From: a bacterium
GTDB taxonomy: Bacteria; Patescibacteriota; Minisyncoccia; Phycocordibacterales; Phycocordibacteraceae
Assembly: GCA_037200965.1 (NCBI GenBank)
Contig: JBBCGK010000001.1
Span: 1 to 64,000, forward strand
DNA: 64,000 nt
Direction of reading: 5' to 3'
This document shows positions 41,920-61,348 of the stretch, in pieces. Positions within the stretch are counted from its first letter, which is position 1. The number at the start of each line of letters is the position of its first letter. A program made the position numbers and the translations under genes. The notes under the pieces were generated by a model. The model saw nothing but the letters and a program-made list of their open reading frames with translations, searched no databases and was not told the origin of the DNA.

Positions 41920-42888
41920 ATGCAAGGCACAGTCGTCGGAGTGCTCCGGGGAGGGCCATCAAGGGAGCATCACGTATCCCTTCGCACGGGGCACACGCTC
42001 CTTTCGAGCCTTCCTTCCGCCCGCTTTTCGGTACGCGATATCTATATCGATGTGAAGGGAGTGTGGCATGAACGAGGACGGGCCATTTCTCCCGCGGACG
42101 CGCTTCGTACGCTCGATGTTGCGCTCATAGGGCTCCACGGCGAATACGGAGAGGACGGGGAAGTGCAGCGGCTTCTCGAGCGCGCGGGCGTCCCGTATAC
42201 GGGCTCCGACGCGCTTTCTTCATTCACGGCCATGCACAAGGCGCTTTCCAAGGAGCGCGCGAAAGACATGGGGCTGCGCACTCCCGACTATCGCTATATC
42301 GAGCGGATGGAAGATATCGAGCCTATGGCGAAGGATGCCGTGCGCACGTTCATGCAGCCGGTCGTCATAAAGCCGGTGCGGTGGGGTTCGTCGATCGGCG
42401 TTTCCCTCGCGAGCGGGTATCAGGAGATTCATACGGCCGCGTCCGAGCTCTTCGGTCTCGGGGCCGACGGCGTGCTTATCGAGGAATACATCCGCGGAAC
42501 CGAAGCGACCGCGGGCGTTCTCGAAGGGCTTCGGGGCGAGCCGCTCTATGCGCTTCCTCCGGTCGAGGTCGTTCTCCCGCGCCCCGAAAGGCTCTTTTCG
42601 TTCAATACGAAATACTCCGGGGCGGCGCAGGAAACGGTTCCGGCGCGCTTCTCCAAAGCGGTTAGGGACGCGCTCGGGGACGCGGCCCGCACGGCGCACC
42701 GGGCGCTCGGGCTCCGGCATTATTCCCGCTCCGATTTCATCGTTACGCCCCGCAACATCTACTACCTCGAGACCAATTCGCTTCCCGCGATAGCGGAGGA
42801 ATCGCTCTTCGCGAAGTCGCTCAAGGCGGTCGGGGTTTCGCTTTCGGAGTTCGCGTCGCACCTGGTCGGGCTTGCTCTGAAGCGTTAG
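41920..42888 (+). CDS. ddl: D-alanine--D-alanine ligase
   Basis: 322 aa. ATP-grasp core (FMQPVVIKPVRWGSSIGVS, EEYIRGTEATAGVL). Typical Ddl N-terminus. Confidence 0.9.
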   Translation: MQGTVVGVLRGGPSREHHVSLRTGHTLLSSLPSARFSVRDIYIDVKGVWHERGRAISPADALRTLDVALIGLHGEYGEDGEVQRLLERAGVPYTGSDALSSFTAMHKALSKERAKDMGLRTPDYRYIERMEDIEPMAKDAVRTFMQPVVIKPVRWGSSIGVSLASGYQEIHTAASELFGLGADGVLIEEYIRGTEATAGVLEGLRGEPLYALPPVEVVLPRPERLFSFNTKYSGAAQETVPARFSKAVRDALGDAARTAHRALGLRHYSRSDFIVTPRNIYYLETNSLPAIAEESLFAKSLKAVGVSLSEFASHLVGLALKR

Positions 42889-42908: not shown

Positions 42909-42984
42909 GGGCCGTTAGCTCAGTTGGTAGAGCACCTCATTTGCAATGAGGGGGTCGCAGGTTCGAATCCTGTACGGTCCACCA
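42909..42984 (+). tRNA. tRNA-Ala(TGC) with encoded CCA
   Basis: Acceptor GGGCCGT/ACGGTCC with G3-U70 (Ala identity). D-arm GCTC-AGTTGGTAGAGC. Anticodon stem CCTCA/TGAGG with loop TTTGCAA (anticodon TGC). T-arm GCAGG-TTCGAAT-CCTGT. Discriminator A then CCA. Confidence 0.9.
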
Positions 42985-44515
42985 AATCTGATTTTTCAGC
43001 AACAACCTGCTGATTTATCTCGTAAATCCAACCTAATTTCGCGGTTCCAAAACCTGTATTTTTATCGTATCTAATTCCTTCGGGAAGGACGAGTTTTTGG
43101 AACCGCTTTTGGGCGTCTACCCCGATGCTGCTCCATGTGCGGGGCAGGTCTGAAATAAACGTGGTAGCGTAGGCTATTGCTGCTTCTATGTCGAGCTTAT
43201 CGAGGTTGTTTTCTCGAATGGTGATTTGCTTTGCGGCAATCTCATTGTCGGTCTTCTCGATAATCTCCTTGCCGAAGTCCTCGCTGACCGTGCCTTTGCG
43301 AATCATCTCTGCGTACTCGAACTTCTTTTGGCGCAGCTCCTCAAGTTCGGTTTGCTGCTGCTTGATAATATCGTCGAGTAATGAGGCATTGCTGCGCCAT
43401 ACTTCTACGACAATCTCGCTGAACAGCGCGAGGAACCCTTGCTTTGGAGTGATAGTGCCAAGCCATGCAAGAAAGTCTGTGTGCATCTTTTCTTGCGAAA
43501 TGTTCTTGGCATACATGGGGCACTGCTTATTGTGGCAATGGTAGTAAGAATAAACGCCGCCGTTGCCGCGCGGATGACTGCCACTCAACCCGATACTGCA
43601 AGCGGCGCAGCGTACGTCCCTTGTGAGCGGGAAATCGGGGTGATTCTTGAGCTTCTTGATGACCTTCGGAACCTTTCCTTTGCGGATAAGCTGTACCTGG
43701 ATAAACTCCTCGGGCGTAATCATCGCCTGGTGCTTACCCTCGACTTCTTTGCCCGTGAACGGATTGAGGATGATGCCCGCATAGAACTTATTGGAAAGAA
43801 TCTCGTCAATCTTCTGCGGATAGATTTTGCGGCCTCGCAGCGTCGTGAGACCCCATTGGTTTGCGAGCTTTGCCAGCTCGACGTTGCCACTCACTTTCTT
43901 CTCAAGACAGGCACGGAAAAGCGCCTGAATTATCGGGAAGCGCTTTGGGTCTGGGTCATCGGCTTCCGTCTTTTTCATGCCGCGCCTCTTGAATTGCTTG
44001 CAGGTATAGCCAAGCGGCGACTTCCAGGGATAGATACCCTGATTTATCTTCTCGCTCATACCATCAGAGCACTGCTGCTTCCTGATAGCGTTCTCATAGT
44101 CCGCTGATGCGGCCGCAACCGTCTCGACTAGTTTCTCAATCGGCTTATTGCCGATAGGTTCGGTAACGGAAAGAAGTGTCGTCCCATAACCGGACAACTT
44201 CTTTCTTATAAAGAAATGGTCTTCTGTGCTGCGAGAAAATCTGTTGACACGAAGCACTAGGAACGCATGAATCTGGCCGTTGTGCTTGCGGCAGAACTCG
44301 ATGGCTCTCAAGAACTCTTTTCGATTATTGAGCGATAGGTCTTTTGCTGATTGCCCTTCCTCTCGGAATACTTCGACGACTTCATAGCTGTTGCGCTCGC
44401 AATACCTCCTGCACTCTGCCTCCTGAAACTCCAAGCTCGTACCGTCAACCTGCTCGTCGGATGAGACGCGCACGTAGATGATTGCTTTTCTTGTTGTGGA
44501 AGTTTTCATGCTCAT
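42920..44515 (-). CDS. large serine recombinase (integrase)
   Basis: 531 aa. N-terminal resolvase catalytic domain (AIIYVRVSSDEQ), recombinase domain, Zn-ribbon (CAACS...CHNKQC) and a coiled-coil. The last ~19 codons (GFEPATPSLQMRCSTN) are read from tRNA-Ala sequence. Confidence 0.8.
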   Translation of the reverse strand: MSMKTSTTRKAIIYVRVSSDEQVDGTSLEFQEAECRRYCERNSYEVVEVFREEGQSAKDLSLNNRKEFLRAIEFCRKHNGQIHAFLVLRVNRFSRSTEDHFFIRKKLSGYGTTLLSVTEPIGNKPIEKLVETVAAASADYENAIRKQQCSDGMSEKINQGIYPWKSPLGYTCKQFKRRGMKKTEADDPDPKRFPIIQALFRACLEKKVSGNVELAKLANQWGLTTLRGRKIYPQKIDEILSNKFYAGIILNPFTGKEVEGKHQAMITPEEFIQVQLIRKGKVPKVIKKLKNHPDFPLTRDVRCAACSIGLSGSHPRGNGGVYSYYHCHNKQCPMYAKNISQEKMHTDFLAWLGTITPKQGFLALFSEIVVEVWRSNASLLDDIIKQQQTELEELRQKKFEYAEMIRKGTVSEDFGKEIIEKTDNEIAAKQITIRENNLDKLDIEAAIAYATTFISDLPRTWSSIGVDAQKRFQKLVLPEGIRYDKNTGFGTAKLGWIYEINQQVVAEKSDLVDRTGFEPATPSLQMRCSTN

Positions 44516-44520
44516 GTGTT

Positions 44521-45417
44521 TTATGTTAGGCGGTTCACTGCATCGCGGAGACCAGCATCGCTGACGTGCAGATAGCGGCTCGTGGTCTCCAGCTTTGAGT
44601 GGCCGAGAAGATTCTTGATAGCAAAGAGGTCAACACCGTTGGTCAAAAGCGAAACACTGAACGTATGACGCAGCGAGTGAACACCTACGTGCTCCTTCTT
44701 GATACCTGCTTTCTTGATGTAGTGCTTGATAAGGTGGTATACGCTGCCGGTGCTCAATCCATTGCCAAGCCGACTGATAAAGAGATATGGCACATCGGTC
44801 TCCGGCCGCTTTTCGAGATGCTTGCGCAATACCTCGACTACCACGCAGTTGAGCGGGATAGTGCGTTCTTTATCTCCCTTACCGCGCACCTTGATGGTGG
44901 GCTGCGCCGAATCAAGACTGACGCTGGTGAGCTTGAGCCCTACCAACTCGGAGAGACGGACACCCGTATTGAGGAATGTGATGACAATGGCGAGGTCGCG
45001 TGCAAGGTAAAACGGTGTTGCGGTGCGCTTTACGGCAGCAATCAGCGCTTCGTATTCTTCTTTGGTCAAATAGCTCGGCTCCTTGTGCGGTAGCTTCGGA
45101 GTCTCAACTTCGGCGGCAGGATTTATCGTAAGAGCATCAAACTGCACCAGGTATTTGAAAAAGGATTTTATTGAGGAGAGCTTGCGGGCGCGGGTTACGG
45201 CGCTGTTCGGCTTCTTGATGCCGTTATGCGTGAGTTCCGAGAGGAAGGCGCGGACATCATCACGCGATACTTTCTTGATATTGCTTTTGCCGCGCGACTC
45301 CAAAAACTCGGTGAACTTTTCCAAGTCAAGTCGATATGCAGCCATCGTACGCACCGATGCGTTTTTGTCGCTGTGAAGGTAATTGATGAATTGTGAGATA
45401 TAATTCTGCATAATCAT
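44521..45417 (-). CDS. tyrosine recombinase (XerC/XerD-like phage integrase family)
   Basis: 298 aa. N-terminal SAM-like domain. Catalytic R...HxxR...Y (HSLRHTF, LGHSKLETTSRYLH). Confidence 0.85.
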   Translation of the reverse strand: MIMQNYISQFINYLHSDKNASVRTMAAYRLDLEKFTEFLESRGKSNIKKVSRDDVRAFLSELTHNGIKKPNSAVTRARKLSSIKSFFKYLVQFDALTINPAAEVETPKLPHKEPSYLTKEEYEALIAAVKRTATPFYLARDLAIVITFLNTGVRLSELVGLKLTSVSLDSAQPTIKVRGKGDKERTIPLNCVVVEVLRKHLEKRPETDVPYLFISRLGNGLSTGSVYHLIKHYIKKAGIKKEHVGVHSLRHTFSVSLLTNGVDLFAIKNLLGHSKLETTSRYLHVSDAGLRDAVNRLT

Positions 45418-45737
45418 TTTTGAGGCGGAAACTGCTCGACAAGAGCTGCGGGCAAGCGTTCGACCAACTCCTTCCGTACCAAAAGCGCATCTTCATCACC
45501 GCGCGAATCAACGCCAAGCGTAATGCTCGTGCCGAAGCAGTGCACGCCACGCTGATTTATGCAGACGAATCCTGCGGCGAGCGCTAATGCTGGCGACTCG
45601 ACCACGCTGCTGTGCAATATTTCACTGTCGAACACGAGAGCTTTCCCTGCGGTAGTGACGACGTACTTCATGGGGATGCGTCCAGCGATGAAGTCCTCCC
45701 ATTCTTTTGTTTTTGATGTGTCGTATTCCATAGTCAT
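45414..45737 (-). CDS. hypothetical protein
   Basis: 107-aa ORF overlapping the tyrosine recombinase start by 4 nt (operon). Confidence 0.4.
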   Translation of the reverse strand: MTMEYDTSKTKEWEDFIAGRIPMKYVVTTAGKALVFDSEILHSSVVESPALALAAGFVCINQRGVHCFGTSITLGVDSRGDEDALLVRKELVERLPAALVEQFPPQK

Positions 45738-46000
45738 TTCTTGGGTAGCTTGCTATCGAGGTACAAGCCGGTGAGTCCTACGAGAGCAATGATGAGCGCC
45801 GCAAGCCATTCTTGGTCGAATCCCGATAGAAGCTCATCGAGATGCAGCCAGAGGAAGACAATCGCTCCGATGATGAACAGTGCTTTGCCCGTGTTCCAAA
45901 CTTCTCGCCAGGTTATCTTCGACCTTGTAGGGATACCGGCATCGGCCGTATTTTCCGCTAGCTTTTGCGTCCGTTTTCCAATGTGATTTTCGTTGCTCAT
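45734..46000 (-). CDS. small membrane protein (hypothetical)
   Basis: 88 aa with two TM helices. 4-nt overlaps on both sides. Confidence 0.4.
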   Translation of the reverse strand: MSNENHIGKRTQKLAENTADAGIPTRSKITWREVWNTGKALFIIGAIVFLWLHLDELLSGFDQEWLAALIIALVGLTGLYLDSKLPKK

Positions 46001-46188
46001 AAAATATTTTTGCTATTGCTGATAAATGCTTCGTACTCCTCACGTCGAATGAGCCATTTATTTCCAATGCGAAAGAAGCCTGGGATTTTTCCGGCTTCAA
46101 TCCATCGAAGTACCGTTGCGCGCGATACGTTCAAATCGGCAGCGACTTCAGATACATTTATCGTTTTACTTTGGATTTCTTCGCTCAT
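45997..46188 (-). CDS. excisionase/MerR-like helix-turn-helix DNA-binding protein
   Basis: 63 aa. HTH (VSEVAADLNVSRATVLRWIEAGKIPGFRIGNKWLI) typical of excisionase-family HTH proteins. First gene of the recombinase operon. Confidence 0.6.
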   Translation of the reverse strand: MSEEIQSKTINVSEVAADLNVSRATVLRWIEAGKIPGFFRIGNKWLIRREEYEAFISNSKNIL

Positions 46189-46593
46189 AACATTTAGTAG
46201 ATATTTACTTCGATACGATGATTCGTTTGTACGTGTTTGTTATCCACTTGACCTGCAACACGCACTTGGTATGATTTACTTGTAGTCGGATGCTGCTATT
46301 TGCATCATTTGAACGGCTGCTAATATCTATTTAGTGCCATTGCCCCGTGAGGGGTCTTTTTCGTTCTAGGCTTTCCATGTTGCTGCTCTGTTTCTTTCCA
46401 CGGGTATGGCACCTCACTTCCTCTCAATGACCTCTGCAAGTGGTGCATGGGTATGCAAGTGTCATAAAGAATGAACTCGCAGGGGTGTCATCTACTCCAT
46501 GCCCGCCGGATTCTGTGAAAACAAAAATCCGGTGGTGGTAGTTGTCGGTTTGTCCCTCGCACTGTGGGCGGGGACACCCTCACCATGTGGAAG

Positions 46594-46857
46594 TTATTTT
46601 GTCGAAACTTCCTTCTTGGGATTCAGGTAGCCCTCGACAATTTCATCAAGCAGCTCTGACATTGCCATTTCTTCTTCTGCTGCTCGCAGCTTCAACTTTT
46701 GTGCGTTTGATACTGACATACGAACTTGCCGTGTAATGCGCTTTTTACGTGCTTGCCAGCCACGCTTCATCGCATTACTCATCTGCTGCTGATAGTGCTG
46801 GTGCATTGCATCCTCTATTTGCTTCGTGAAATCTATTTTTTGTACCTTTGTCGACAT
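46594..46857 (-). CDS. hypothetical protein (possibly ribbon-helix-helix)
   Basis: 87-aa basic/acidic helical ORF in the island. Confidence 0.3.
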   Translation of the reverse strand: MSTKVQKIDFTKQIEDAMHQHYQQQMSNAMKRGWQARKKRITRQVRMSVSNAQKLKLRAAEEEMAMSELLDEIVEGYLNPKKEVSTK

Positions 46858-47177
46858 AGATTAGTTATTACGACTCTTATATCCTTCATCTCCCCGAAGA
46901 TGCCGGAATCTGAAACCTAGTAATGAACTCATAGCATCCGTCCAAACCTTCAATCAGTCGGGCTTTCACCTTCAGCATCGCCTCATCACGGCGACACTTT
47001 CCCGAACGTTTGTCTGACAAGGCTAGACGGCCAGTTATCGTTTGATGTGCAGGTGAAGTCCCCCGTCGCAGAGTCGTCAGGCGGAGCGGGGACTGGTATC
47101 TGCACACCAATCCGATTATTCGGCCGGTTTTTTATCGAGGACTCGCCGACGACCTCGTGCTTTGAGCTTGTAGAGAG

Positions 47178-47390
47178 CTACGCCTGCATTTCGGCTGGCG
47201 CGGGCAGCGTACTCACAAAGGGTGATGGCATTGCCTTGTCCTTTGCAGATACGAGACCTTTCTTTTGCCAACTATCAAATGCGAGATTTGCAGCGATGTA
47301 GAGTTCATCACGGACAGCCTCAACAGCCTCATCGGAGAGGAGGTTTGCTTCGTTGCCTAGAACTTTTTTGCATTGCGCGATGCTCAACAT
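47178..47390 (-). CDS. hypothetical protein
   Basis: 70-aa ORF in the island. Confidence 0.3.
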   Translation of the reverse strand: MLSIAQCKKVLGNEANLLSDEAVEAVRDELYIAANLAFDSWQKKGLVSAKDKAMPSPFVSTLPAPAEMQA

Positions 47391-47678
47391 AAGGGTTGGC
47401 GTCGGCGCGTTGTGAGCAGTTTCTAATTTGTGGAGCTGTTCAAAAGAAAAGACCCGCAGAAGAATCAGAAAACCACTGTGTAAACAGTGTCTTACTAGTT
47501 CCTATGCGGGGCGGAGTTGGTGCCTGGCTATCGAGAAGTCTCGATGTGCTCTGCGGCTAAAAAATTTGCCCTTGCCGTATTAGTTGACGTTGATATGCAA
47601 CGTGCTGACTGGGTACAGTTTAGTGCTGTAGACAATGAGACGCAAGCGTTTTTCAACAATGCTTGTGGAGAGCGACCA

Positions 47679-47709
47679 TGTCAATATGACAGTTTAGTCA
47701 ATTTTGTCA
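47679..47709 (+). promoter_or_regulatory. candidate operator: perfect palindrome TGTCAATATGACA plus a third TGTCA half-site
   Basis: TGTCA-ATA-TGACA at 47679-47691. A further inverted TGTCA sits at 47705-47709. Located ~60-90 bp upstream of the HTH gene that precedes the Type III R-M operon. Confidence 0.4.
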
Positions 47710-47767
47710 TAGTTTGATATACTATGACCATCGGCGTGAGGGATTATTATTAGACCGCCGCTTCAAT

Positions 47768-47968
47768 ATGGCTTCAAAGGACAAAAACTACCTGACGATT
47801 CAAGAAGTCGCCAAAAAATTGGAGGAGCGGCACTTCGACATCACCGAGCGAACGGTGTATCGCTATGTCCAAAAAGGAAAGATACGGGCAATCAAAATCG
47901 GCGGCTGGCGTATCGAGAAAAAAGATTTTGAAAAGTTCCTCGAAGAAAGCTCAAACACCAAGAAATAA
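47768..47968 (+). CDS. excisionase-family HTH DNA-binding protein (candidate controller of the R-M operon)
   Basis: ATG at 47768 (MASKDKNYLTIQEVAKKLE...RTVYRYVQKGKIRAIKIGGWRI). Stop is 4 nt before the mod start. Confidence 0.55.
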   Translation: MASKDKNYLTIQEVAKKLEERHFDITERTVYRYVQKGKIRAIKIGGWRIEKKDFEKFLEESSNTKK

Positions 47969-47972
47969 TTTT

Positions 47973-49769
47973 ATGAAGAACCAGCCAACAAAAGTAAATC
48001 TCGCCTCCGCAAATCTCTCCGAGGAGAAGCTGTTTGAGTTGCGGCGTATCCTTCCCGAAGCGTTCAGCGAAAACAAAATTGACTGGGAGAAGCTCCGCAC
48101 GGTTCTTGGCGACGCGGTGGATGCTCATATCGAGAAGTTCGGCTTTACCTGGGCGGGCAAGGGCAACGCCATCAAGAATGTTTTGATACCGAGCAAGGCC
48201 ACGCTCAACCCCGCTCCCGACGAGAGTGTGATGTTCGACGAGAGCCAGAATCTTTTTATCGAGGGCGACAACCTCGAAGTCTTGAAGCTTTTGCAAAAGG
48301 CGTACTTTGAGAAGGTGAAGATGATTTATATAGACCCGCCGTACAACACCGGCGGCGACTTCGTGTACAAGGACAACTTTACCGCACCGCTTGATAACTA
48401 CCTCCATCAGACCGGCCAGAAGAACGGCAACGGCGAGCATCTCACGACAAACAAGGAAACCAACGGCCGCTTCCACAGCGATTGGCTCTCAATGATGTAT
48501 CCGCGTCTCAAGCTCGCGTGGAATCTTTTGCGCGACGACGGCGTTATCTTCATCAGCATTGATGATAACGAGGTGCATCATCTCCGCATATTGCTAAATG
48601 AAGTGTTTGGCGAAGAAAACTTTATTGGTGAGTTTATCGTCGTACGTGCAGAAGGGGGTGGTTTAGCACATCAGTATGTGAAAGGACATGATTATCTGCT
48701 TGCATACGCAAAGTCTATTACAGACTTTGAACCACTCCGTCGCCCGAAAGATATTAGAGGCAAAATTATTGAGAAAGACGGCAAGGAATACTGGATAGAA
48801 GAAGACTGGCTCCGCCGAGAGTTCGGTAAGTACGGCACTCTCCTATACGAAGACATTGAGGAAGTGAAGGGGGCTAACAAGAAAGCGGAAATTGACGCTG
48901 GTTTGCAGAGCGGAGAGTATCAACTGATAAAGAAAAATGGCGGCCATATTGTTGGTCGACTTCGCCTAATTGAAGAAGATGGCTCCAAGTTCTACAGCAT
49001 CCTCAAACATCTTTCTGCGAGGGGAAACGATGATTTGCAGGAATTGGAAATGGGCAAACTCTTTGACTTTCCAAAGCCGGTATCTTTGCTGCGCGAACTC
49101 ATTTTGGGAGCCACGTTCTTTAGTAAGAATGACGGCGATATTATTCTCGACTTTTTCGCTGGCTCTGGTACCACGGCTCATGCTGTAATGGCACAAAATG
49201 CGGAAGATGGAGGCAATCGAAAGTGGATTGCTGTTCAACTACCGGAGAAGACCGAGAGCGATAGCGAAGCGTTCAAAGCCGGATACAAAACTATTGCCGA
49301 CCTTACTAAAGAACGTATACGCCGCGCCGCAAAGAAGCTAGAAAATACTGATGGCTTCAAAATCTTCAAGCTCGCAGCATCAAACTACCCCGAGAACGCT
49401 TTTGAGTTCGACCCAGATAAAACAGAAGACGAGAACAAAGCCGCCTTCGAGGACTACTTGAAGCACGCAAAGCGCGCCAAGCTTATTGACGACCTAGACG
49501 AGACGAGCGTCATCTACGAAAACATCGTCAAGGAAGGATTCTCGCTCAACTCCAAGATTCAGGAAGGCGTGCCAGGAAACAACAAGGTCTACACCATCAC
49601 CGACGGCGACCGGCAGTTTTCTATCTGCCTCGACCGTTCGATTGATGACACGACCGTAAAGAACATCACGGAGTGGGCTAAAGGAGCGACCTTTATCTGC
49701 TTCGATAATGCGCTCTCTGACAGCCAGAAAGCAAACCTCGGCCTCCACGTGGAGCTGAAAACGATATAA
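47973..49769 (+). CDS. mod: Type III restriction-modification system methyltransferase (Mod, N6-adenine)
   Basis: ATG at 47973 (MKNQPTKVNL). SAM motif and catalytic DPPY (IYIDPPYNTGGDF). Central variable (target-recognition) region. Motif I (FFAGSGTTAHA) after it, as in Mod enzymes. Confidence 0.85.
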   Translation: MKNQPTKVNLASANLSEEKLFELRRILPEAFSENKIDWEKLRTVLGDAVDAHIEKFGFTWAGKGNAIKNVLIPSKATLNPAPDESVMFDESQNLFIEGDNLEVLKLLQKAYFEKVKMIYIDPPYNTGGDFVYKDNFTAPLDNYLHQTGQKNGNGEHLTTNKETNGRFHSDWLSMMYPRLKLAWNLLRDDGVIFISIDDNEVHHLRILLNEVFGEENFIGEFIVVRAEGGGLAHQYVKGHDYLLAYAKSITDFEPLRRPKDIRGKIIEKDGKEYWIEEDWLRREFGKYGTLLYEDIEEVKGANKKAEIDAGLQSGEYQLIKKNGGHIVGRLRLIEEDGSKFYSILKHLSARGNDDLQELEMGKLFDFPKPVSLLRELILGATFFSKNDGDIILDFFAGSGTTAHAVMAQNAEDGGNRKWIAVQLPEKTESDSEAFKAGYKTIADLTKERIRRAAKKLENTDGFKIFKLAASNYPENAFEFDPDKTEDENKAAFEDYLKHAKRAKLIDDLDETSVIYENIVKEGFSLNSKIQEGVPGNNKVYTITDGDRQFSICLDRSIDDTTVKNITEWAKGATFICFDNALSDSQKANLGLHVELKTI

Positions 49770-49771
49770 CT

Positions 49772-52402: not shown

Positions 52403-55400
52403 ACTTCTATGGACTCTTTATCGGGATAGACAGATATGCCTCTCCAAGTATCAACTGGTTGAGTTGTGCAAAGCGTGATGCAGTAGCACTTCATGCGCTC
52501 TTTACTGACACACTTGGCGGCAGCACGAAACTACTTACAGATGAACAAGCCACGCGCCCTACCATTGAAGCGGAGTTTGCAGAACTGGCTAAATGCAAAG
52601 AGGATGACGTGGTAGTCATAACCTTCTCTGGACACGGTACTACTACGCACGAGTTAGTTGTCCATGATGCGGACAGAAGTAATTTGCCAGGCATGTGCAT
52701 CCCGCTTTCAGTTGTAAGCGAGTGGGTTGCAAAAATACCAGCAAAAAAGTTGCTGTTTATCTTGGATTGCTGCTTTTCTGGCGGCATGGGTGCGAAAGCT
52801 CTCCAGGTTGATGTTGTCTCACGTGATATAACTTCAGCCGATGATTTGCTCAAACAACTTTCTGGAGATGGACGGTTGATTTTGACCGCATCGCTTGCCA
52901 CAGAACCTGCTTGGGAGAACCAAAAGCTCGGCCACGGCTTTCTCACATATCATCTGCTGACAGCAATGCAGGGTACCGAAGAAGTGAAAAAGGCAGGTAA
53001 GATTACTGCGTACCGCTTACTTGAATACGTAACGGAAAGAGTGGTAGATGACGCAAAAAAGATTGGTAAAGAGCAACATCCAACTCTCCGCGGCACGATG
53101 GACGGCTCGTTGACGTTTCCTGTATTTACTCCTGGCACGCTATACGCCGCCGCGTTTCCAGAGAGAACAAAAGCAAAAGTTAGTGCAGATATTCAATCGC
53201 TTGAACCCTATGGATTCCCCGAGACCATACTAAAAGCATGGGCGGGTGCGATACCATCGCTCAACCAGTTGCAGATAGACGCTATCAACGACTTCGGGCT
53301 ACTTGATAGTGAGCACTTGGTTGTTTCCGCACCAACATCCTCTGGTAAGACAATGGTTGGTGAACTTGCTGCCATCAGTGGCGCACTGAAACGTCGGAGA
53401 GCACTTTTCTTATTTCCTTTGAAGGCGCTTGTAAATGACAAGCTGCGCCATTTCAATAGCACATACGGTGCGTTTGGTCTGAAAACCATCAAAGCAACTG
53501 GCGAGAGTACAAGCGATGACATGCTCCCTTTGATGCGTGGCCAGTATGATATTTGCTTGATGACGTATGAGAAGTTTTCTGCGCTCGTTCTAGGCTACCC
53601 GCATATCCTTGAGCAAATCGGAACCATTGTAGTTGATGAGGTGCAGATGATTGCCGATGAATCACGTGGAGTGAATCTTGAGTTTATCCTTACACTATTG
53701 AGGATGCGACGTAGAGAAGGAGCTGAACCGCAGCTCATTGCTCTTTCTGCCGTAATTGGTGATACCAACGGACTGGAGCGATGGCTTGGCGGCCGACTGC
53801 TGCGCAGAACAGAGCGTCCCGTGCCACTTGATGAAGGAATTATCAAAGCCGACGGCAGCTTCCGCTATATCGAGTCTGACACTGGAACGGAGAAGACCGA
53901 TACGTCTTATATTATCCCTGAATCACGCAAAGGTTCGAGCCAAGACTTGATTATCCCTCTAGTGCGAAAATTGGTCGGTGAAGGTAAAAGCGTGATTGTA
54001 TTCCGTGAGACACGGGGTGAAGCGCGCGGCTGCGCCCTCTACCTCGCAAGCTCTCTTGGATTGCCGGCCGCACAAGTTGCCCTCGATACATTGCCGAATA
54101 GCGACCCGTCCATCTCATCCAACAAGTTGCGAGAGGCACTTGGAGGCGGTATCGCTTTTCATATATCGGATTTGGATACCGAGGAGCGTCTTGTTGTAGA
54201 GGAACAATTTAGAGCCAGACCTACAGCGCTCAAAGTGATAGCCGCGACCACGACTCTTGCAATGGGAGTGAACACCCCTGCGGAGGCGGTTATCATTGCC
54301 GGTCTCACACATCCAGGAGACCATCCGTATTCAGTTGCAGAGTACAAAAACATCATCGGTCGTGCTGGACGACTTGGCTTCTCGCAGCGTGGCACTTCCT
54401 ACGTTGTCGCAATGAATGGTAGCGATGAACACCACATTTGGAATAGCTACGTTCTTGCATCCCCAGAAGACCTGAACTCCCGCTTTTTGGCAGACCATAC
54501 AGACCCGCGCACATTGATTGTGAGAGTTTTGATAGCTGCTGGTCGTGCGGGTTTGCCAGCACAGCAGATAGTTGAGTTCTTGGAGGAGAGCTTTGGCGTG
54601 TTCCAGCAGAAAGCAATAAACGCTAGCTGGAAATGGGATGAGCAACAGCTTCTGCAAGCTCTCGCTGACTTGAATGCGCACGGATTGGTTGAGAAGGATA
54701 AGGATGATGTATACCACCTCACAGAACTCGGAAAGCTGGCGGGTGTTTCTGGCGTTGAGGTGGAGTCAGTCATTCGAGCTGTGAACGCTTTAAGCGGTCT
54801 GCCGACCACAGACATCAACGACCCTGCACTCATTACGCTCTCGCAAGCAACCGCGGAGCTTGACCAGGTATTATTCCCGATGAATAAGAAAAGCACGCAA
54901 AAAGAACCGCAGGCATGGGCTACTGAAATACGAAATCAAAATGTCCCTACTCAAATAACACAGGAACTTGGGCGCAACACCTCGGATACAACGCAACAAA
55001 CATTGCGCGCTAAAAAAGCAGTAGCAAGTCTACTTTGGATAACTGACCGGCCGCTGAATGAAGTAGAGACAACTATGACACAGTTTGGCGGTGGGCTAGA
55101 TGGTGCCGCTGGTGCAATTCGTGGTGTTGCTGCACGAACGTGTGATGTGCTGCCTACGATTGCTCGCATTGCCGAACTGCTGAATCCTGGTTTTGATTTG
55201 AGCAATCGAGTATCACGACTGTTGATACGGCTTGAGATTGGCGTACCGGCCGCTGGTGTTGAACTCGGCTCTCGCATCGGCAGAATACTTACTCGTGGTG
55301 ATTATCTCAACCTTCTCAAAGCAGGCATCTCTACTGCTGAACAATTTGAGACAGCAGACGAGAAAGTCCTTTTGTCGTGCCTCGGAGACAGCACCGATAA

Positions 55401-55491
55401 ACTTGAACAAGCAAAGCTCGCATTAGAAAACACCTCACAGGAAGAACCTGCTCCGATGATGCCACCGATTTTACCAGCCTATGAAGGATAA
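52399..55491 (+). CDS. fusion protein: N-terminal caspase-like (peptidase C14/CHAT-like) domain + Ski2/Hel308/Lhr-like SF2 helicase + C-terminal helical region
   Basis: 1030 aa. Caspase-like dyad: GIDRY, catalytic His in FSGHG, catalytic Cys in LDCCFSGG. Helicase motifs I APTSSGKT, II VVDEVQMI, III SAV, VI IIGRAGRLG. Overlaps the res stop by 4 nt (ATGA). Confidence 0.7.
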   Translation: MNFYGLFIGIDRYASPSINWLSCAKRDAVALHALFTDTLGGSTKLLTDEQATRPTIEAEFAELAKCKEDDVVVITFSGHGTTTHELVVHDADRSNLPGMCIPLSVVSEWVAKIPAKKLLFILDCCFSGGMGAKALQVDVVSRDITSADDLLKQLSGDGRLILTASLATEPAWENQKLGHGFLTYHLLTAMQGTEEVKKAGKITAYRLLEYVTERVVDDAKKIGKEQHPTLRGTMDGSLTFPVFTPGTLYAAAFPERTKAKVSADIQSLEPYGFPETILKAWAGAIPSLNQLQIDAINDFGLLDSEHLVVSAPTSSGKTMVGELAAISGALKRRRALFLFPLKALVNDKLRHFNSTYGAFGLKTIKATGESTSDDMLPLMRGQYDICLMTYEKFSALVLGYPHILEQIGTIVVDEVQMIADESRGVNLEFILTLLRMRRREGAEPQLIALSAVIGDTNGLERWLGGRLLRRTERPVPLDEGIIKADGSFRYIESDTGTEKTDTSYIIPESRKGSSQDLIIPLVRKLVGEGKSVIVFRETRGEARGCALYLASSLGLPAAQVALDTLPNSDPSISSNKLREALGGGIAFHISDLDTEERLVVEEQFRARPTALKVIAATTTLAMGVNTPAEAVIIAGLTHPGDHPYSVAEYKNIIGRAGRLGFSQRGTSYVVAMNGSDEHHIWNSYVLASPEDLNSRFLADHTDPRTLIVRVLIAAGRAGLPAQQIVEFLEESFGVFQQKAINASWKWDEQQLLQALADLNAHGLVEKDKDDVYHLTELGKLAGVSGVEVESVIRAVNALSGLPTTDINDPALITLSQATAELDQVLFPMNKKSTQKEPQAWATEIRNQNVPTQITQELGRNTSDTTQQTLRAKKAVASLLWITDRPLNEVETTMTQFGGGLDGAAGAIRGVAARTCDVLPTIARIAELLNPGFDLSNRVSRLLIRLEIGVPAAGVELGSRIGRILTRGDYLNLLKAGISTAEQFETADEKVLLSCLGDSTDKLEQAKLALENTSQEEPAPMMPPILPAYEG

Positions 55492-56320
55492 AAATATGAT
55501 GAAAAAACGAACAGCAGTAATACTCATCGTCGTCGCTATCGTGGCAACATACGCTGTCATCATGTGGGCGTATTACGGAGACCCTTCATGGTCTAGCAGC
55601 AGCGACACCGCAAGCAGCACCGAGATACCGGCAGACTGCAACGTGCTCGCGTTCAACCTCAACGGAGAGATAGCAACATACCTGCCGCAAGATAGTATCA
55701 GTGAGACCGATTCCGTCTCATCGGCCGATATTCTCGATGGTCTCAAGCTGGCGAAGGAGAACCCGCAAATAAAGGCGGTGCTGCTTTCGGTTGATTCCGG
55801 CGGCGGGAGCGTCGTAGCCGGTGAGGAGATAGCCAACGGCTTCAAGGCGCTCGGCAAGCCCTCTGCGGCGGTTATCCGCGACCTGGGAGCTTCTGCCGCA
55901 TACTGGGCGGCTACCGGCGCAGGCAGGATATTTGCCTCGAAGGTGTCGGATGTGGGTAGTATCGGCATCACCGCCTCATACCTCGACAATACCGTTGCGA
56001 ACGCAAAGGACGGTCTCACGCCCGTGGCAATCGTCTCTGCGCCGTATAAGAACGAGGGCGACCCCGACTTTCCGCTCACGGCAGCAGGCAAGGCGGACAT
56101 ACTCGCATCTATCAAGAAAGACCATGAGGTTTTCGTGGACGAAGTTGCAGCAAACCGGAAGCTCGACCGCAGCAAGGTAGCAGCGCTTGCAGATGGCCGA
56201 ACGTATGTTGGCACCGACGCCGTGGACAACGGACTGATTGACGGCATCGGCAGCATTCCCGAAGCGACCGACTATCTTACTCAACAGATTGGTGAGTCTG
56301 CGCAGGTGTGCTGGTACTAA
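55481..56320 (+). CDS. SppA/S49-family serine peptidase (signal-peptide-peptidase-like), membrane-anchored
   Basis: 279 aa. N-terminal TM. S49 core with Ser in GASAAYW and downstream Lys. Start overlaps the upstream gene's end by 11 nt. Confidence 0.65.
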   Translation: MKDKNMMKKRTAVILIVVAIVATYAVIMWAYYGDPSWSSSSDTASSTEIPADCNVLAFNLNGEIATYLPQDSISETDSVSSADILDGLKLAKENPQIKAVLLSVDSGGGSVVAGEEIANGFKALGKPSAAVIRDLGASAAYWAATGAGRIFASKVSDVGSIGITASYLDNTVANAKDGLTPVAIVSAPYKNEGDPDFPLTAAGKADILASIKKDHEVFVDEVAANRKLDRSKVAALADGRTYVGTDAVDNGLIDGIGSIPEATDYLTQQIGESAQVCWY

Positions 56321-56972
56321 CCGACGCGCGCAGCATCGTCATATCTTTCTCGCTCATTTTTCCGGCCATCGCCCGATTGAGAATGTTCATCATAAAAGTT
56401 GCCGTCTCGCGCTTGTCGGCGTTTGATTTGATATTCAGAGACTCCTTGCTGTGCGCAGCGCGCATCACATAGTTGAACACGTTTAGCACGTAGTTGCGGC
56501 GCTTCACGATGATGTCATCGTCGTAGCTGCTTTCATCGTCCTGGTCGCGCTTGAGAATATCCATCGCATCGTTGAGCAGCTCGCCTGCAAGGGTGCTCGC
56601 GCCCATCTCTAGCGTCTGCGCATCCGGCACGATGGCGGCATTTTGCTCATCCCGCACCTTGATGATTTGCCGCAGCTCCCGCTGCTCCTGCTTGTAGCCC
56701 TGCTCGGCGAGCAGCTCCGCGTCCCACTTCTTGCGCCACAGGCGATATTGCTTCTCCCAGGGAAAGAAGGTAAACGGGGCGATGGACTTGTTGAAATCGT
56801 TGATGATACGGATGGCGCTGCGGTCTGGTTCCTTGCGGCGCTCGGCCAGGTAGAAGGCGCGGAAGGACGGGAGAAGCTCCCGAAGCTCACCGACCCTCTG
56901 GTATTTGCCGTCAAAGCCCTCGTAGAAGGAGAAGATGGGCTTGGTATCGTTTTGTGGTGTTGATGTGTCCAT
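56277..56972 (-). CDS. hypothetical protein
   Basis: Start taken at the internal ATG 56972 (MDTSTPQND...) to avoid overlapping the recombinase remnant. Acidic helical protein, no family. Confidence 0.4.
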   Translation of the reverse strand: MDTSTPQNDTKPIFSFYEGFDGKYQRVGELRELLPSFRAFYLAERRKEPDRSAIRIINDFNKSIAPFTFFPWEKQYRLWRKKWDAELLAEQGYKQEQRELRQIIKVRDEQNAAIVPDAQTLEMGASTLAGELLNDAMDILKRDQDDESSYDDDIIVKRRNYVLNVFNYVMRAAHSKESLNIKSNADKRETATFMMNILNRAMAGKMSEKDMTMLRASVSTSTPAQTHQSVE

Positions 56973-56988
56973 AGGGGCTATAATGAGG

Positions 56989-58554
56989 CTATATCGCAGC
57001 GTGCTGGGGCTGGAGAATGGCTTGCCACTCCTGCAATCCTTCAAGGACTTGGTTCCAGTTCGCGCGGATGTAGTCCACATCGTCGGAGTTGGTGGTAGCT
57101 AACTCCTCAAACAGCCTGGTTTTACTTAGCTTATTTCCGGTTCTATAACCCTCATTTTTGGCATACTCCAATTTGCGCTCAAAGAGGAAGAAAAAGAGCC
57201 GGTGCTGACCATGCACATCGAACAAATCCCAAGTAGATACGGGGCTTTTTAGCATTCCCATACTCTTATCAAGGGCGGTTCTATAAGGTATTCCTAAGTC
57301 CTTGCTGATGAGGGTCGTGCCCTCCATTTTCTCAAGCTCGCGTGCGCTGTCTTCTATCTGAGCTTCATACGTGCGCACTACAGCCTCAGAATTGGCCTTA
57401 CGCGCCATCTCTGACAGCTCCTTGAGCTTCTTCTTCAACTCCTCCTTTCGCTGCTCCTGAAGGTAATCCTGCCATTCAAATATTCTTGACTCCTGTGCCC
57501 ATATTTTATCGAACACGCTAGAAGCAACACCAGTAACGGCAGGCTTGAGTCGGTTGCGTGCGAGCACCTTCTTGAAATCATCCTCGACATCCTTCTTCCG
57601 AAGGGTCTTGAAGTAGAGCTCACACTTCCTGTTCTGGCAGAAGTAGTATTCGTACTTCTTCTTGCTGCGGCTCGTTGATGGAGCTGCTGAAAGATGGCCA
57701 TCACATAGGGCGCAGGTAATGAGGCCACGCAGTGGGAATTGGTCTGAGGTGTCTTTGCGAGGCTTGGCCTTTGCTTCGTCCTTTCCAAGCCGTGCCTGAA
57801 TGCGAAGGAAGGTGTCAGGTTTAATAAGACCTGTGTGCTGTCCGTCTCTTCGAGACACGCCCCAGGGGAGGTATTCAATGAATCCTGCAAAGAAAGGGTC
57901 TTCAAGCATTCCTGAAACATGGTCTAAGCATCGAACAGGCTCCTTACCAGCCCACATACCTCGCTCCACCATAAAGTTGGCGACATCAATCTTTCTTGGC
58001 AAATTGCCGCTCGCGAATCCTTCAAGAGCAGGCTTGATTACCTCGTAGCCAAGCTTATTCGGCTGCGCAACCTTTCCACGGCCAAGAATGAACACCATGT
58101 CATACCCGCGCTTCTTACTGAATGGCCAGTAGCCTGCGAGCAGCCGAGCTTCCATCTTGTTGATTACCTGTTCCGCGTTCTGCTCACGGTCGAGTTCAGC
58201 CTGCGCTGCGAGTACACGCTCAACGAATCTTCCCGAAGGGGAGTCCTCGAAGTTGAAGTTAAGGCAGAGCGGAATAATGTCGCACTCAGTGAACGCTTCC
58301 ATCAGCGCCATATGAAACTTCAGGTCGCGTGCAAAGCGTTTGAGGTCGTCGAAGACAACAACGAACTTCTTATCGCGGTTTGCACGAACATACGCCAATA
58401 ACTCTCGCATGCTTGGACGGCGCATGAAGTCGCCACCTCCTGTGTACGTGTCTATGAAGGACCGGTCATAGGGTATACCAAGCTCTGTAAGTCGAATCTT
58501 GCATCGCGTCTCCTGACTTGATTGGCCACTGCCATTCAGCTCCTGGCTCGAGTT
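56989..58554 (-). pseudogene. large serine recombinase remnant lacking the N-terminal catalytic region
   Basis: ORF 56989-58425 begins mid-resolvase domain (…RPSMRELLAYVRANRDKKFVVVFDDLKRFARDL). The frame continues upstream to 58554 (…IDTYTGGDF) with no YxRVS catalytic-serine motif, then hits a stop and an AT-rich junction. C-terminal recombinase and Zn-ribbon regions are intact. Confidence 0.6.
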
Positions 58555-58894
58555 TTAAATATTTTAAGGATCTAGACGCCTTTAGAAAATATGCACGGAA
58601 TATTGAAAGCATTGATCGTATTGATAAAGAACTTGAGGATAAAGTAGAAAAAGTAACCAAAGAGATAAAAGCTCGAGTTAAGCAGCAGCATCCTGATATG
58701 TAATTGAATCTTGATATGAATTTTTACGACAAATACATCCTCCCTAAATACCTCAATTGGACGATGAGAAAGAAGGATTTCGCGGTGATGTGATTCACCA
58801 CAATAAACCGTCCAGGGCTGGCACGAAGACGAGCAATCGTCCGAATGCCAGCCCTTTCCCATTTCTGATAGAATATCACTCAACCAACTCCAAT

Positions 58895-59311
58895 ATGACA
58901 ATTGTTGAAAAAGTTAAAGAACTTAACTTGCCGTTCGGACAATACGTCGTTATCGGGAGCGGCCTCTTGGAAGCTCTCGGTATCCGCAAAGCGCAGGATA
59001 TCGATGTTGCCGTCCTGCCCAACCTGTATGACCGGTTGCGCGCGAGCGGGGAATGGGGAGAGGAAGAGAAATACGGCAAGATCTTTCTCGTGCGGGAAGG
59101 CATCGAGATAAGTCCGAAGACTTCCTGGGATGAATACACGACCACTACGGAGGAAGCCATAGCTTCGGCGATGATAATCGACGGCGTTCCCTTTATGAGC
59201 CCTAAGGAGCTTATAAAATTTAAGACGGCTATGGGGCGCGAGCTGGATTTCAGGGATATCGATTTATTGAACGAGTATCTCGAGAAGCATAGGGATCAGG
59301 AGCCTTCATAG
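58895..59311 (+). CDS. nucleotidyltransferase-fold protein (ANT(2'')/Lnu-like small-molecule nucleotidyltransferase candidate)
   Basis: ATG at 58895. YVVIGSGLLEALGIRKAQDIDVAV matches the G[SG]...DxD pol-beta-type nucleotidyltransferase signature. 138 aa. Confidence 0.5.
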   Translation: MTIVEKVKELNLPFGQYVVIGSGLLEALGIRKAQDIDVAVLPNLYDRLRASGEWGEEEKYGKIFLVREGIEISPKTSWDEYTTTTEEAIASAMIIDGVPFMSPKELIKFKTAMGRELDFRDIDLLNEYLEKHRDQEPS

Positions 59312-59384
59312 GCGGTCTTTCTCCGAGGAAGAATATGCGGTAGTATTGCCATAGGCAGCAGCGTATTGTGCCAAGGAGGCGCAC

Positions 59385-59627
59385 ATGACTCGTCAAGAAA
59401 CTTCGGAGGCTGAACATGCTCAAGCAAAGAAGGCGAGACGCGAATTCTATCTATACAGCGTCCTGCCGTGCTTGGCGGTATTTGCTCTCTCAACGCTCTT
59501 CGCGCACGTGAACTTGTTTGGCGGACGCGATCTGTGGGGAGTCCTCTCGGTCCTTTCGGGCGCCCTGGGATTGGCGTGGGCGACGTTTCCGCTTTGGTTT
59601 CGTGCCGCATCAGGCATGAGCCGGTAG
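59385..59627 (+). CDS. small membrane protein (hypothetical)
   Basis: 80 aa with two TM helices. Confidence 0.35.
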   Translation: MTRQETSEAEHAQAKKARREFYLYSVLPCLAVFALSTLFAHVNLFGGRDLWGVLSVLSGALGLAWATFPLWFRAASGMSR

Positions 59628-60738: not shown

Positions 60739-60800
60739 GAAGATATTGTAGCGCAAAACGGCCGCACGGGCGGCCGTTTTGCTCGAACAGTTTGCCCCCA

Positions 60801-60871
60801 TCGGGCCGCCGGGAATCGAACCCGGTCTACATCCACCCCATGGACGCGTACTACCGGTATACTACGGCCCG
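60801..60871 (-). tRNA. tRNA-Pro(GGG)
   Basis: Minus-strand cloverleaf. Acceptor CGGGCCG/CGGCCCG. D-arm GTAT-ACCGGTA-GTAC. Anticodon stem CGTCC/GGATG with loop ATGGGGT (anticodon GGG). T-arm CCGGG-TTCGATT-CCCGG. Discriminator A, no CCA. Confidence 0.8.
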
Positions 60872-60896
60872 TTTCGTTCGCTGGTCCTGTGTCCTG

Positions 60897-60967: not shown

Positions 60968-60984
60968 ACACGACACACGACCTG

Positions 60985-61057: not shown

Positions 61058-61086
61058 GTTCGGAAGAATATAGCACGAGGAACCGG

Positions 61087-61299: not shown

Positions 61300-61348
61300 T
61301 CATCATAGCCTTTTCGAGCTCCCTTTGATATCGTGAGCGGGCAATCGA

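Follow-up and report, generated by a model that had tools for sequence, protein, structure and literature searches.

Exchanged integrase tails at a tRNA-Ala gene point to tandem serine-integrase insertions in a Patescibacteria genome

How a block of low-GC DNA carrying two serine recombinases and a tyrosine recombinase came to lie against the 3' end of a tRNA gene, and which of these enzymes put it there, is the question raised by the first 64,000 nucleotides of contig JBBCGK010000001.1, from a tiny-genome Patescibacteria bacterium. We refer to this whole stretch of DNA as the window. The block starts at tRNA-Ala(TGC), lies between ddl and mltG, and contains an intact large serine integrase (SR1), a XerC/XerD-like tyrosine recombinase (YR), a defense operon, and the relic of a second serine integrase (SR2). 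A preliminary description had read it as a composite that arose as one element after another inserted at a single tRNA gene and had counted the dual serine and tyrosine recombinase content among the signs. The first part of that reading stands, on the truncated SR2 and on exchanged integrase tails, and the second does not, as YR and SR1 belong to one module; the block is very probably a tandem array of two successive serine-integrase insertions at the tRNA-Ala(TGC) 3' end. A defense-carrying island is a familiar object; what is new here is a serine integrase at the tip of a tRNA gene, the location of its site in its own gene, and the swapped tails.

A foreign island at an insertion hotspot

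Composition confirms that the low-GC block is a genuine foreign island. GC content is 0.586 over the 42.9 kb to the left of tRNA-Ala (range of 0.576 to 0.592 across all 14-kb host segments), drops to 0.510 at positions 42983 to 57072, 0.506 at 57079 to 58548, and 0.451 at 58549 to 59350, and is 0.576 beyond; an AT-rich junction (58450 to 58900) has a GC content of 0.38 to 0.39. The tetranucleotide distance between element and host is 0.031, which is 4.3 times the host maximum of 0.0072. The GC and tetranucleotide check that had been proposed for this locus therefore returned a clear break, and the earlier placement of a lower-GC island (0.45 to 0.51 versus 0.576 to 0.592 in the host, with foreign tetranucleotides) at tRNA-Ala(TGC) between ddl and mltG is borne out.

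The left host flank is the D-Ala-D-Ala ligase gene ddl (41920 to 42888, plus strand; Pfam Dala_Dala_lig_N/C), followed by an intact tRNA-Ala(TGC) (42909 to 42984, plus strand; ARAGORN; Rfam tRNA, 72.6 bits), and the right flank consists of an open reading frame (ORF) for an 80-aa membrane protein (59385 to 59627, plus strand), where GC is back at 0.58 to 0.62, and of mltG/YceG (59683 to 60801, minus strand; Pfam YceG) with a tRNA cluster after it. The order uvrC-ddl-tRNA-Ala(TGC) is near-universal and is kept in about 80 relatives (80 Parcubacteria/Paceibacterota loci with Ddl identities of 45 to 65%, from a Ddl scan of species-representative genomes). In closer relatives, mltG follows ddl/tRNA-Ala after a gap that ranges from 0.6 to 1.1 kb (L027 and L013; L numbers denote fetched loci and P numbers denote proteins) to more than 9 kb, and serine-recombinase genes or fragments adjoin the tRNA gene in L012, L014, L015, L017, L023, L063, and L079. 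Insertion has therefore recurred in this interval, which is a hotspot. Both junctions of the SR1-type element are defined, relatives lack it at this site, and a homologous element occupies the same tRNA gene in a distant host. Proteins of the element are far more alike than proteins of the hosts: SR1, YR, and p231, the product of a gene at the far end of the element, are 68 to 75% identical between the window and the paired loci L111/L107, whereas Ddl is 37% and UvrC is 46% identical, which is direct evidence of horizontal movement. The relatives and the composition analysis did not show the same gene order with neither an indel nor a composition break, and the island is upheld.

Integrase tails exchanged across a six-base core

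SR1 (42920 to 44515, minus strand; body, 42977 to 44515) is a 531-aa large serine integrase that is intact and reads antisense into the tRNA gene (Pfam Resolvase and Recombinase). PF00239 matches residues 11 to 160 at 1.2e-25, with the catalytic motif YVRVSSDEQ, and PF07508 is present; PF13408 is carried by SR1 homologues, and an AlphaFold2 (AF2) model of family member P0019 has a beta-ribbon at residues 304 to 330 and a long helical hairpin at 362 to 439. The last 18 codons of SR1 (42920 to 42976) are tRNA antisense, and the protein ends in ...SDLVD followed by RTGFEPATPSLQMRCSTN and the stop codon. SR1 retains all catalytic and DNA-binding domains, and only its last 27 codons have been exchanged. 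Its native tail, YIRANWNQVLEGLQEWQAILQPQHAAI followed by a stop codon (56989 to 57072, minus strand), lies at the other end of the element, where it forms the P arm of attR in frame with the SR2 stump; it is the sole coding segment in the region for a tail of the WNQ type (SR1-family pattern xxRxxWNQ[IV][IL]xELxxWQxL). The SR2 relic (57079 to 58548, 1.47 kb, minus strand; ORF with the fused tail, 56989 to 58425; Pfam Resolvase at profile positions 48 to 143 only and Zn_ribbon_recom) is only 22% identical to SR1. It has ...SDDVD at the equivalent point and then YIRANWNQVLEGLQEWQAILQPQHAAI, and its homology to every relative ends at residue 451, the D of VD, encoded by GTGGAC.

The only sequence common to both junctions of the window is GTCCAC, which at attL (42977 to 42982) covers the acceptor-stem 3' strand, the discriminator, and C74 of the tRNA and which at attR (57073 to 57078, placed by junction alignment) marks the end of SR2 homology. 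The SR1-type element between them spans 42983 to 57072 (14,090 bp). GTCCAC is also the core at attL and attR of L111/L107, L015, and L101, the common sequence in L111/L107 being GTCCACCAA. Read in tRNA-sense orientation, the window attL is ...CCTGTACG GTCCAC CAAATCTGATTTTTCAGC and matches that of L111 (...GGTAGG GTCCAC CAAATCTGATTTTTCAGC), the SR1 of which is about 75% identical to SR1 of the window. The window attR is ...GCGCGGATGTA GTCCAC ATCGTCGGAGTTGGTGGTAGCTAACTCCTCAAA. Its left half matches the attR of L107 (...CACGCGGATGTA GTCCAC CAAGGTATTGCC, with AT-rich host DNA after the core), and its right half, the 3' flank of SR2, matches the P' arm in the attL of L101 (...CCTTGG GTCCAC ATCGTTAGAGTTGGTAGCAGCCAACTCCTCAAA), an intact SR2-type element with an integrase 83% identical to SR2. 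As the two halves match an SR1-type P arm and an SR2-type P' arm, the site before insertion would have been an SR2-type attL like that of L101.

Other loci supply the states that such exchanges would leave. L111 is the other end of the L107 element and has xis, YR (68%), SR1 (74 to 75%), and tRNA-Ala(TGC), for a total of about 13.7 kb. Of the 29 residues that run from VD through the tail end, 24 are identical between L107 and the window, tail codons 3 to 24 have only three synonymous and three nonsynonymous differences, and upstream of the L107 tail there is AT-rich host DNA in place of the SR2 body. In L015, what comes after the tRNA is the 3' fragment of an SR2-type gene (attL), and attR lies about 2.3 kb further, with an orphan tail (...SSVD followed by IAYKSLNSLKSYLTRFWDYYQSSPALQNAL and a stop codon) and then GTCCAC and a terminator hairpin, a pattern that fits the expectation for an integrase gene spanning attP. 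Independently, L100, which encodes P0156, combines an SR2-type body with an SR1-type tail and also has the beginning of a p231-like gene.

The native tail of the window is followed, 17 nt downstream of its stop codon, by the p231 gene (56277 to 56972, minus strand; 231 aa), the terminal gene of SR1-type elements, which lies beside host DNA in L107 to L110. Homologues of p231 are preceded there by an orphan tail, VDYIRVNWNQILEGLQEWQAILQPQYAVV and a stop codon in L107/L108 and VDYVFANWNKVIESLQIWQGLLQP... in L109/L110; tail and p231 together are 72% identical at the protein level between L107 and the window. Homologues number 95, at 34 to 83% identity, in Patescibacteria, and several share contigs with SR1-family members. 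The p231 fold is all helical and gave no informative structural match.

One could instead suppose that SR2 sits at its own unrecombined attP, the WNQ tail and p231 then belonging to an SR2 element, or to a single two-recombinase element of 16 kb, of which the SR1 attR was lost. The tail is in frame with SR2, but the same tail and p231 adjoin host DNA at the far end of the SR1-type elements of L107 to L110, and p231 shares contigs with SR1 homologues, not SR2 homologues. P0156, which is 47% identical to SR2, bears a near-identical tail, yet its contig runs into the start of a p231-like gene and is most simply another tandem array. Native-tail integrases do occur within element gene neighborhoods; the native tail of the SR2 type, however, is a different one (KTLN...YQSSP, carried by 10 proteins and orphaned at the L015 attR), and the intact SR2-type element of L101 lacks p231. 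A second orphan tail, such as would mark a further SR1 attR, was sought and ruled out, and the single WNQ segment therefore favors the tandem model over a lost attR. The supposition is largely refuted, and we consider it improbable.

A proposed history of two insertions

In the tandem-array model, an SR2-type element, of a kind that is intact at the same site in a relative, would have inserted first at the GTCCAC core. The recombination of a 14.1-kb SR1-type element with the same core, which placed it between the tRNA and the SR2 gene, is a step that the junction sequences show; the order, SR2 type first and SR1 type second, is inferred from junction geometry. In both integrase families, the crossover site lies near the 3' end of the integrase gene, within its coding region, and integration has accordingly exchanged the tails: SR1 now ends in 18 tRNA-antisense residues, while its native 27-residue helical tail and p231 lie beside the SR2 body, with the tail fused in frame. 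Before or after that insertion, a deletion would have taken the first ~32 codons of SR2 and the rest of the SR2-type element, leaving the 1.47-kb stump joined to a 0.8-kb AT-rich remnant. The tRNA would stay functional because only its last bases lie past the crossover and the element restores CCA.

Judging from these sequences, SR1 probably catalyzed its own insertion, with crossover within GTCCAC, and the integrase at work would be a serine recombinase and not the tyrosine recombinase. The T arm and acceptor stem of the tRNA appear to be the main recognition half-site; the other half-site is wholly different among the window, L107, L109, and L100. The reconstructed attP is ...GGATGTA GTCCAC CAAATCTGA..., the predicted attP junction is ...TTCGCGCGGATGTA-GTCCAC-CAAATCTGATTTTTCAGC..., and the site predicted after excision is ...CCTGTACG-GTCCAC-ATCGTCGGAGTTGG....

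Several observations weigh against this history. The use by SR1 of another element's attL as attB, with the B' half-site replaced, is unconventional, yet L100 is independently alike. Dyad symmetry of the SR1 attP is best when centered on CC (13/25) and is not significant (p ~0.15), and it is absent from the SR2-type attP and from the attBs. No excised circle was found: neither of the predicted products, SR1 with its native tail (540 aa) and SR2 with a tRNA-derived tail (469 aa), occurs in a database of 15 billion proteins, and IMG/VR does not contain the predicted attP junction. The search that it suggested for an empty site recovered ddl-tRNA-Ala-mltG with short gaps in relatives and no isogenic empty site, the closest relatives with an uninterrupted site having only ~60 to 65% Ddl identity. 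The island is also present in all five assemblies with identical flanking proteins, with no strain-level empty site or polymorphism among them. The att-like repeats with the tRNA 3' half that had been anticipated were likewise not encountered: repeat finding and sensitive local alignment gave no tRNA-derived direct or inverted repeats in the island beyond the 6- to 9-bp core, which is the expected result if, as we propose, a serine integrase was at work.

Tail diversity and a possible integration switch

Tails were classified in the best 120 homologues of each integrase family, of hundreds of members returned. In the SR1 family, 72/120 are tRNA antisense (...G[FLI]EPxT..., the T-loop read backwards) and 37/120 are native WNQ tails; in the SR2 family, 93/120 are tRNA antisense, 10/120 have the native tail KTLNxLKxYLxxFWxxYQSSPxLQKAL, which is also the type orphaned at the L015 attR, and 4/120 are WNQ tails. 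The tail W and L are invariant in the 37 aligned native-tail proteins of the SR1 family, and the AlphaFold model of one of them has a standard serine-integrase architecture, a flexible linker, and an 18-residue tail helix. In well-diverged tails, nonsynonymous differences are two to four times rarer than synonymous ones, also past the first 30 nt (a small sample), which suggests that selection acts on the tail peptide as well as on the DNA site.

On six metagenome contigs with SR1 homologues, five of the integrases end antisense in a tRNA gene, and the sixth contig stops before the integrase 3' end; four of the five tRNAs are tRNA-Ala (three TGC and one CGC), and the type of the fifth is unassigned. 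Where native-tail members lie on long contigs, mobile-element genes flank them on both sides, and no tRNA was detected at the tail. The antisense tails of the combined SR1/SR2 family (P0001 to P0240) fall into several classes, among them RTGFEPATPSLQMRCSTN, PARIELAPLQCECSVLPLNYGP, LRGIEPRxxPCHGxVLPLYYxP, and VEMGGIEPPCK, and several different tRNA or tRNA-like targets are therefore implied. Separately, L049 has an orphan WNQ-type tail at ~20590 to 20690 (minus strand; VVDLNEADWNQIINEIRLLAGLAGQF and a stop codon, with another stop codon before it), about 1.4 kb past tRNA-Ala(GGC), and this is probably what remains of the attR of an SR1-family element, now lost, at another tRNA-Ala.

A broader reading, which we offer tentatively and rate below even odds when its parts are taken jointly, is that two large serine-integrase clades systematically target the acceptor/T-arm end of tRNA genes, cross over within their own gene, and thereby have a switch built into integration. 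These clades would be common in Patescibacteria and are met also on contigs labeled by their sources as Omnitrophota or Ignavibacteriales. Integration would replace the C-terminal helix with tRNA-antisense residues and cut p231 off from the integrase operon, and the free and integrated forms could thus make different integrase proteins and transcripts, maybe controlling directionality; the native tail and p231 would then matter functionally in the circular form. If this is true, the archaeal "suicidal" integrases would have a serine-family counterpart in bacteria, and tail swaps in tandem arrays would be a readable record of insertion order.

The SR1-type backbone and its tyrosine recombinase

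Upstream of SR1 lie genes that overlap at their starts and stops and that read toward the tRNA. YR (44521 to 45417, minus strand; 298 aa; Pfam Phage_integrase and SAM_1) scores 237 bits against TIGR02224 XerC, under the cutoff of 335. It is followed by two small ORFs (45414 to 46000, minus strand) of 107/105 aa and 88 aa, whose starts and stops overlap YR and xis and which have no significant family match; an 88-aa product is called at the position corresponding to the second of them in L109/L110 (matched by position only). The xis gene (45997 to 46188, minus strand) encodes a 63-aa excisionase-like helix-turn-helix (HTH) protein (Pfam HTH_17, 2.5e-13; TIGR01764 excise domain) that is conserved in L091, L109, and L111 and is a candidate directionality factor or regulator. 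Profile matches and start/stop overlaps agree with the operon of an excisionase-like HTH protein, two small proteins, and tyrosine and large serine recombinases described earlier. Further along are a weak ribbon-helix-helix ORF (46594 to 46857, minus strand; RHH_10, E value of 7.7e-4, below the cutoff), the conserved 70-aa ORF p70 (47178 to 47390, minus strand; kept in L091, L107, L109, and L111), and a second HTH_17 protein of 66 aa (47768 to 47968, plus strand; TIGR01764, MAD1-like HTH) that heads the cargo operon. This second HTH_17 gene heads different restriction-modification (R-M) cargo operons in L107/L111 and L109/L110, and its L091 copy has no cargo ORF after it. Scanning 45.9 to 48.1 kb for promoters and terminators gave nothing informative. 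The parts conserved across the window, L091, L107/L111, and L109/L110 are the integrase, YR, the xis-like HTH protein, the 70-aa ORF, the second HTH_17 protein, and p231.

The YR gene is kept beside SR1 homologues in L091 (53%) and L111 (68%), and both of these loci have the whole xis-YR-SR1 series, which by its gene order reads as one conserved module of a single element type, YR being no sign of a second element. More distant SR1-family elements (L093, L096, L097, and L098) lack YR, and the L093 integrase still ends in a tRNA; YR is therefore a subfamily accessory, with a possible role in multimer resolution or cassette exchange, and is apparently not the integrase.

The same observations bear on the view that this is a classical tRNA island that the Xer-like YR integrated, the serine recombinases being passengers or resolvases. 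Such a view has in its favor a YR that is complete (SAM-like and catalytic domains), lies 1.5 kb from the tRNA, and shares an operon with an excisionase-like HTH gene, and the usual employment of tRNA sites by tyrosine integrases (PMC7192596). YR nevertheless scores as Xer-like, under equivalog cutoffs; there is no displaced tRNA fragment and no direct repeat of more than 6 bp; and homology between independent elements breaks exactly at the VD codons of the serine integrases. The four loci without YR count against it as well, although a tRNA is seen at the integrase 3' end in L093 alone, L096 being cut before that point and L097/L098 carrying the native tail. We judge integration by YR to be very unlikely. 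Least credible of all is a degraded prophage or integrative and conjugative element, for although a large serine integrase with an excisionase-like gene is common in temperate phages and there are PHROG integrase matches, general family scans of the ORFs at 42.9 to 59.4 kb found no capsid, terminase, tail, relaxase, coupling protein, or type IV secretion system family, PHROGs matches are limited to integrase, excisionase, and HTH proteins (plus phrog_12854, of unknown function), no SR1 relative was found in IMG/VR, and the backbone in three independent elements consists of recombination genes, p231, and defense cargo only.

Defense cargo

The tandem-array model leaves the cargo as part of the SR1-type element. 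Adjacent Mod (47973 to 49769, plus strand; PADLOC MTase_III, 2.3e-164; Pfam N6_N4_Mtase) and Res (49772 to 52402, plus strand; PADLOC REase_III, 2.5e-240; Pfam ResIII and RE_endonuc) genes identify a Type III R-M system. Next is a 1,030-aa fusion of an EACC1-type caspase and a Hel308/Ski2-like helicase (52399 to 55491, plus strand; Pfam Peptidase_C14, DEAD, and Helicase_C; NCBIfam; PADLOC HamB and PDC-M23B), a candidate defense effector by its domains. Dozens of full-length (~1,000-aa) relatives occur among 50%-identity cluster representatives, and the fusion is apparently a recurrent, uncharacterized defense-like architecture. Assignment to Hachiman was rejected: HamB profiles match at 1e-34, but Hel308-like ones are better (7.7e-81), and there is no HamA (DUF1837), with a caspase domain at the N terminus instead. 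The operon closes with a 279-aa SppA-like S49 peptidase (55481 to 56320, plus strand; Pfam Peptidase_S49), which also adjoins p231 in the L107 element. The R-M/defense operon, the truncated second serine recombinase, and the AT-rich junction of the preliminary description are thus all recovered by Pfam, PADLOC, NCBIfam, and SR2 alignment.

From the second HTH_17 gene to p231, the cargo varies by element: Type III R-M, caspase-helicase, and S49 peptidase genes in the window, Type I R-M and S49 peptidase genes in L107, and a Type I/IIG-like system with a KAP NTPase in L109. The SR2-type element of L101, which occupies this ddl/tRNA-Ala locus in a relative, encodes Prim-Pol and a Type I R-M system and lacks p231. 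In the ultrasmall genomes of Patescibacteria, a fixed 5-kb recombination backbone would bring Type I, Type III, and other R-M/defense cassettes to the ddl hotspot.

Comparison with known integration systems

Like the large serine integrases phiC31, Bxb1, A118, SCCmec Ccr, and TnpX, SR1 combines a resolvase domain whose nucleophile is Ser with recombinase, zinc-ribbon, and coiled-coil regions, and its gene lies beside the att site, with a short common core, no long direct repeats, and probably a need for a separate excision factor. Unlike them, it would target the tRNA 3' acceptor end, and the crossover in its own coding sequence would alter its C terminus. Among 297 serine integrases in 2,168 genomes, 14 used a tRNA or tmRNA (t[m]RNA) gene, a use that "has not been reported previously" (PMC7192596). 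The SR1 and SR2 clades would run counter to the notion that tRNA genes are shunned by serine integrases (PMC7192596).

The SSV-type "suicidal" tyrosine integrases of archaeal viruses and plasmids share with SR1 an att site inside the integrase ORF and a tRNA target; integration there alters the integrase gene, with possible built-in directionality control, and the arrangement is described as exclusive to archaea (PMC8371274). They differ in being tyrosine recombinases that are split into inactive halves, whereas the bacterial serine integrase SR1 loses its last 27 residues only. An att site in a bacterial integrase gene contradicts the statement of exclusivity (PMC8371274) and suggests a directionality mechanism. 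Serine integrases that systematically target tRNA genes appear to be essentially unreported, as does the placement of an att site within the integrase gene of a bacterium, and a search of the literature that was available on serine integrases with tRNA and the candidate phyla radiation (CPR)/Patescibacteria returned nothing relevant.

In lambda sib retroregulation, integration at attP parts int from a downstream sequence that affects int, and the effect is on RNA stability. By analogy with this and with circularization-dependent operons of integrative and conjugative elements, p231 and the native tail would join the SR1 integrase operon only in the circular form; unlike the effect of sib, the effect for SR1 would be on protein sequence and cotranscription. 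Classical tRNA islands (P4-like elements and Islander-type integrative genetic elements) are similar in having an intact tRNA at one end with the integrase beside it, defense cargo, repeated use of one tRNA, tandem arrays, and decayed relics, and SR1-type elements depart from them in lacking a displaced tRNA fragment at the far end, in having a core of only 6 to 9 bp, and in the recombinase family. The nearest ecological analogue is the tycheposons of Prochlorococcus, which are cargo-carrying, tRNA-targeting, variable islands with tandem junctions in streamlined genomes; 910/937 have tyrosine recombinases, 27/937 have a large serine recombinase, and replication genes occur in many (bioRxiv 10.1101/2020.12.28.424599). 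Their hosts are cyanobacteria, and the SR1-type backbone (xis, Xer-like YR, serine recombinase, and p231) is not described there.

Serine integrases are prized in genome engineering for their short sites, and a clade that recognizes the near-universal tRNA 3' end and seemingly tolerates different second half-sites would be a natural wide-host-range integrase family. Swapped tails would also provide a simple sequence rule for delimiting elements and ordering successive insertions.

The SR2 relic, the AT-rich remnant, and neighboring loci

SR2 is truncated at ~58550, and about 32 N-terminal residues, including the catalytic Ser, are missing; in an alignment to the intact 83%-identical homologue P0122, the relic begins where VSDK gives way to SQELNG. 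In GenBank, this truncated protein is annotated as an ordinary 516-aa "recombinase family protein" (MEJ0053161.1). A decayed tRNA-Ala pseudogene seen by eye in the SR2 tail was dismissed, its score of 8 being level with the background mean of 8.1. Exactly at the truncation point, a 9-bp sequence, GCTCGAGTT, occurs at 58546 to 58554 and again as a direct repeat at 58671 to 58679, 125 bp downstream; the two copies flank the most AT-rich stretch and may be a scar left when a deletion or an insertion inactivated SR2. The AT-rich remnant of ~0.8 kb (58549 to 59350, plus strand; GC, 0.451) holds the C-terminal fragment of a gene (to 58703) and a 138-aa ORF (58895 to 59311), and no homologue of it is present in any of the 111 fetched loci. 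The 138-aa ORF had been called a nucleotidyltransferase, for which we found only a GSG...DIDV motif: there is no Pfam, NCBIfam, PADLOC, or PDB match, and the sole match is phrog_12854, a PHROG of unknown function.

Relatives display further variation at the tRNA gene. In L012 and L014 (Parcubacteria C7867-008 and C7867-007), tRNA-Ala(TGC) beside ddl is reduced to its 5' half (nt 1 to 41; 11024 to 11064), the break falls just past the anticodon loop, and the downstream sequences of the two metagenome-assembled genomes are unlike. The L012 break is fused to an SR2-like gene cut about 50 codons short of the VD anchor; the 3' half of the tRNA is absent across the L012 ddl-mltG interval and was not found in the 10 kb downstream of L014 ddl. 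In seven loci with no adjoining integrase (L009, L024, L030, L043, L045, L052, and L053), a terminator-like hairpin lies 3' of tRNA-Ala(TGC) and is followed, ~50 to 60 nt downstream of the tRNA, by an inverted copy of the tRNA 3' end (e.g., GTAGGGCCGTACAGG, the reverse complement of CCTGTACGGTCCAC), which could form a long palindrome around attB or be a relic. In L020, L054, L068, and others, tRNA-Ala(TGC) is directly followed by a Val(CAC), Pro(CGG), Pro(GGG), Ala(CGC), and Ala(GGC) cluster. In the window (60801 to 63812), mltG and other genes are interposed and the cluster is partly inverted, and the hotspot has therefore also been rearranged in this lineage. Contig breaks within the tRNA in one sample (L003/L090) resemble low-coverage breaks.

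Elsewhere in the window, a lone low-GC gene (4093 to 5037, minus strand; 0.44 versus 0.59 around it) separates a RelA/SpoT-like gene from topA; a motif seen by eye (...YYDVHFDNFIV...DFE...) resembles those of aminoglycoside/choline-kinase-type phosphotransferases, and the gene may be a separate small acquisition. An insertion sequence-like ORF pair at ~31920 to 33414 (plus strand), upstream of uvrB, comprises HTH_23/HTH_38 and a DDE_Tnp_1 transposase according to the calls of the source assembly.

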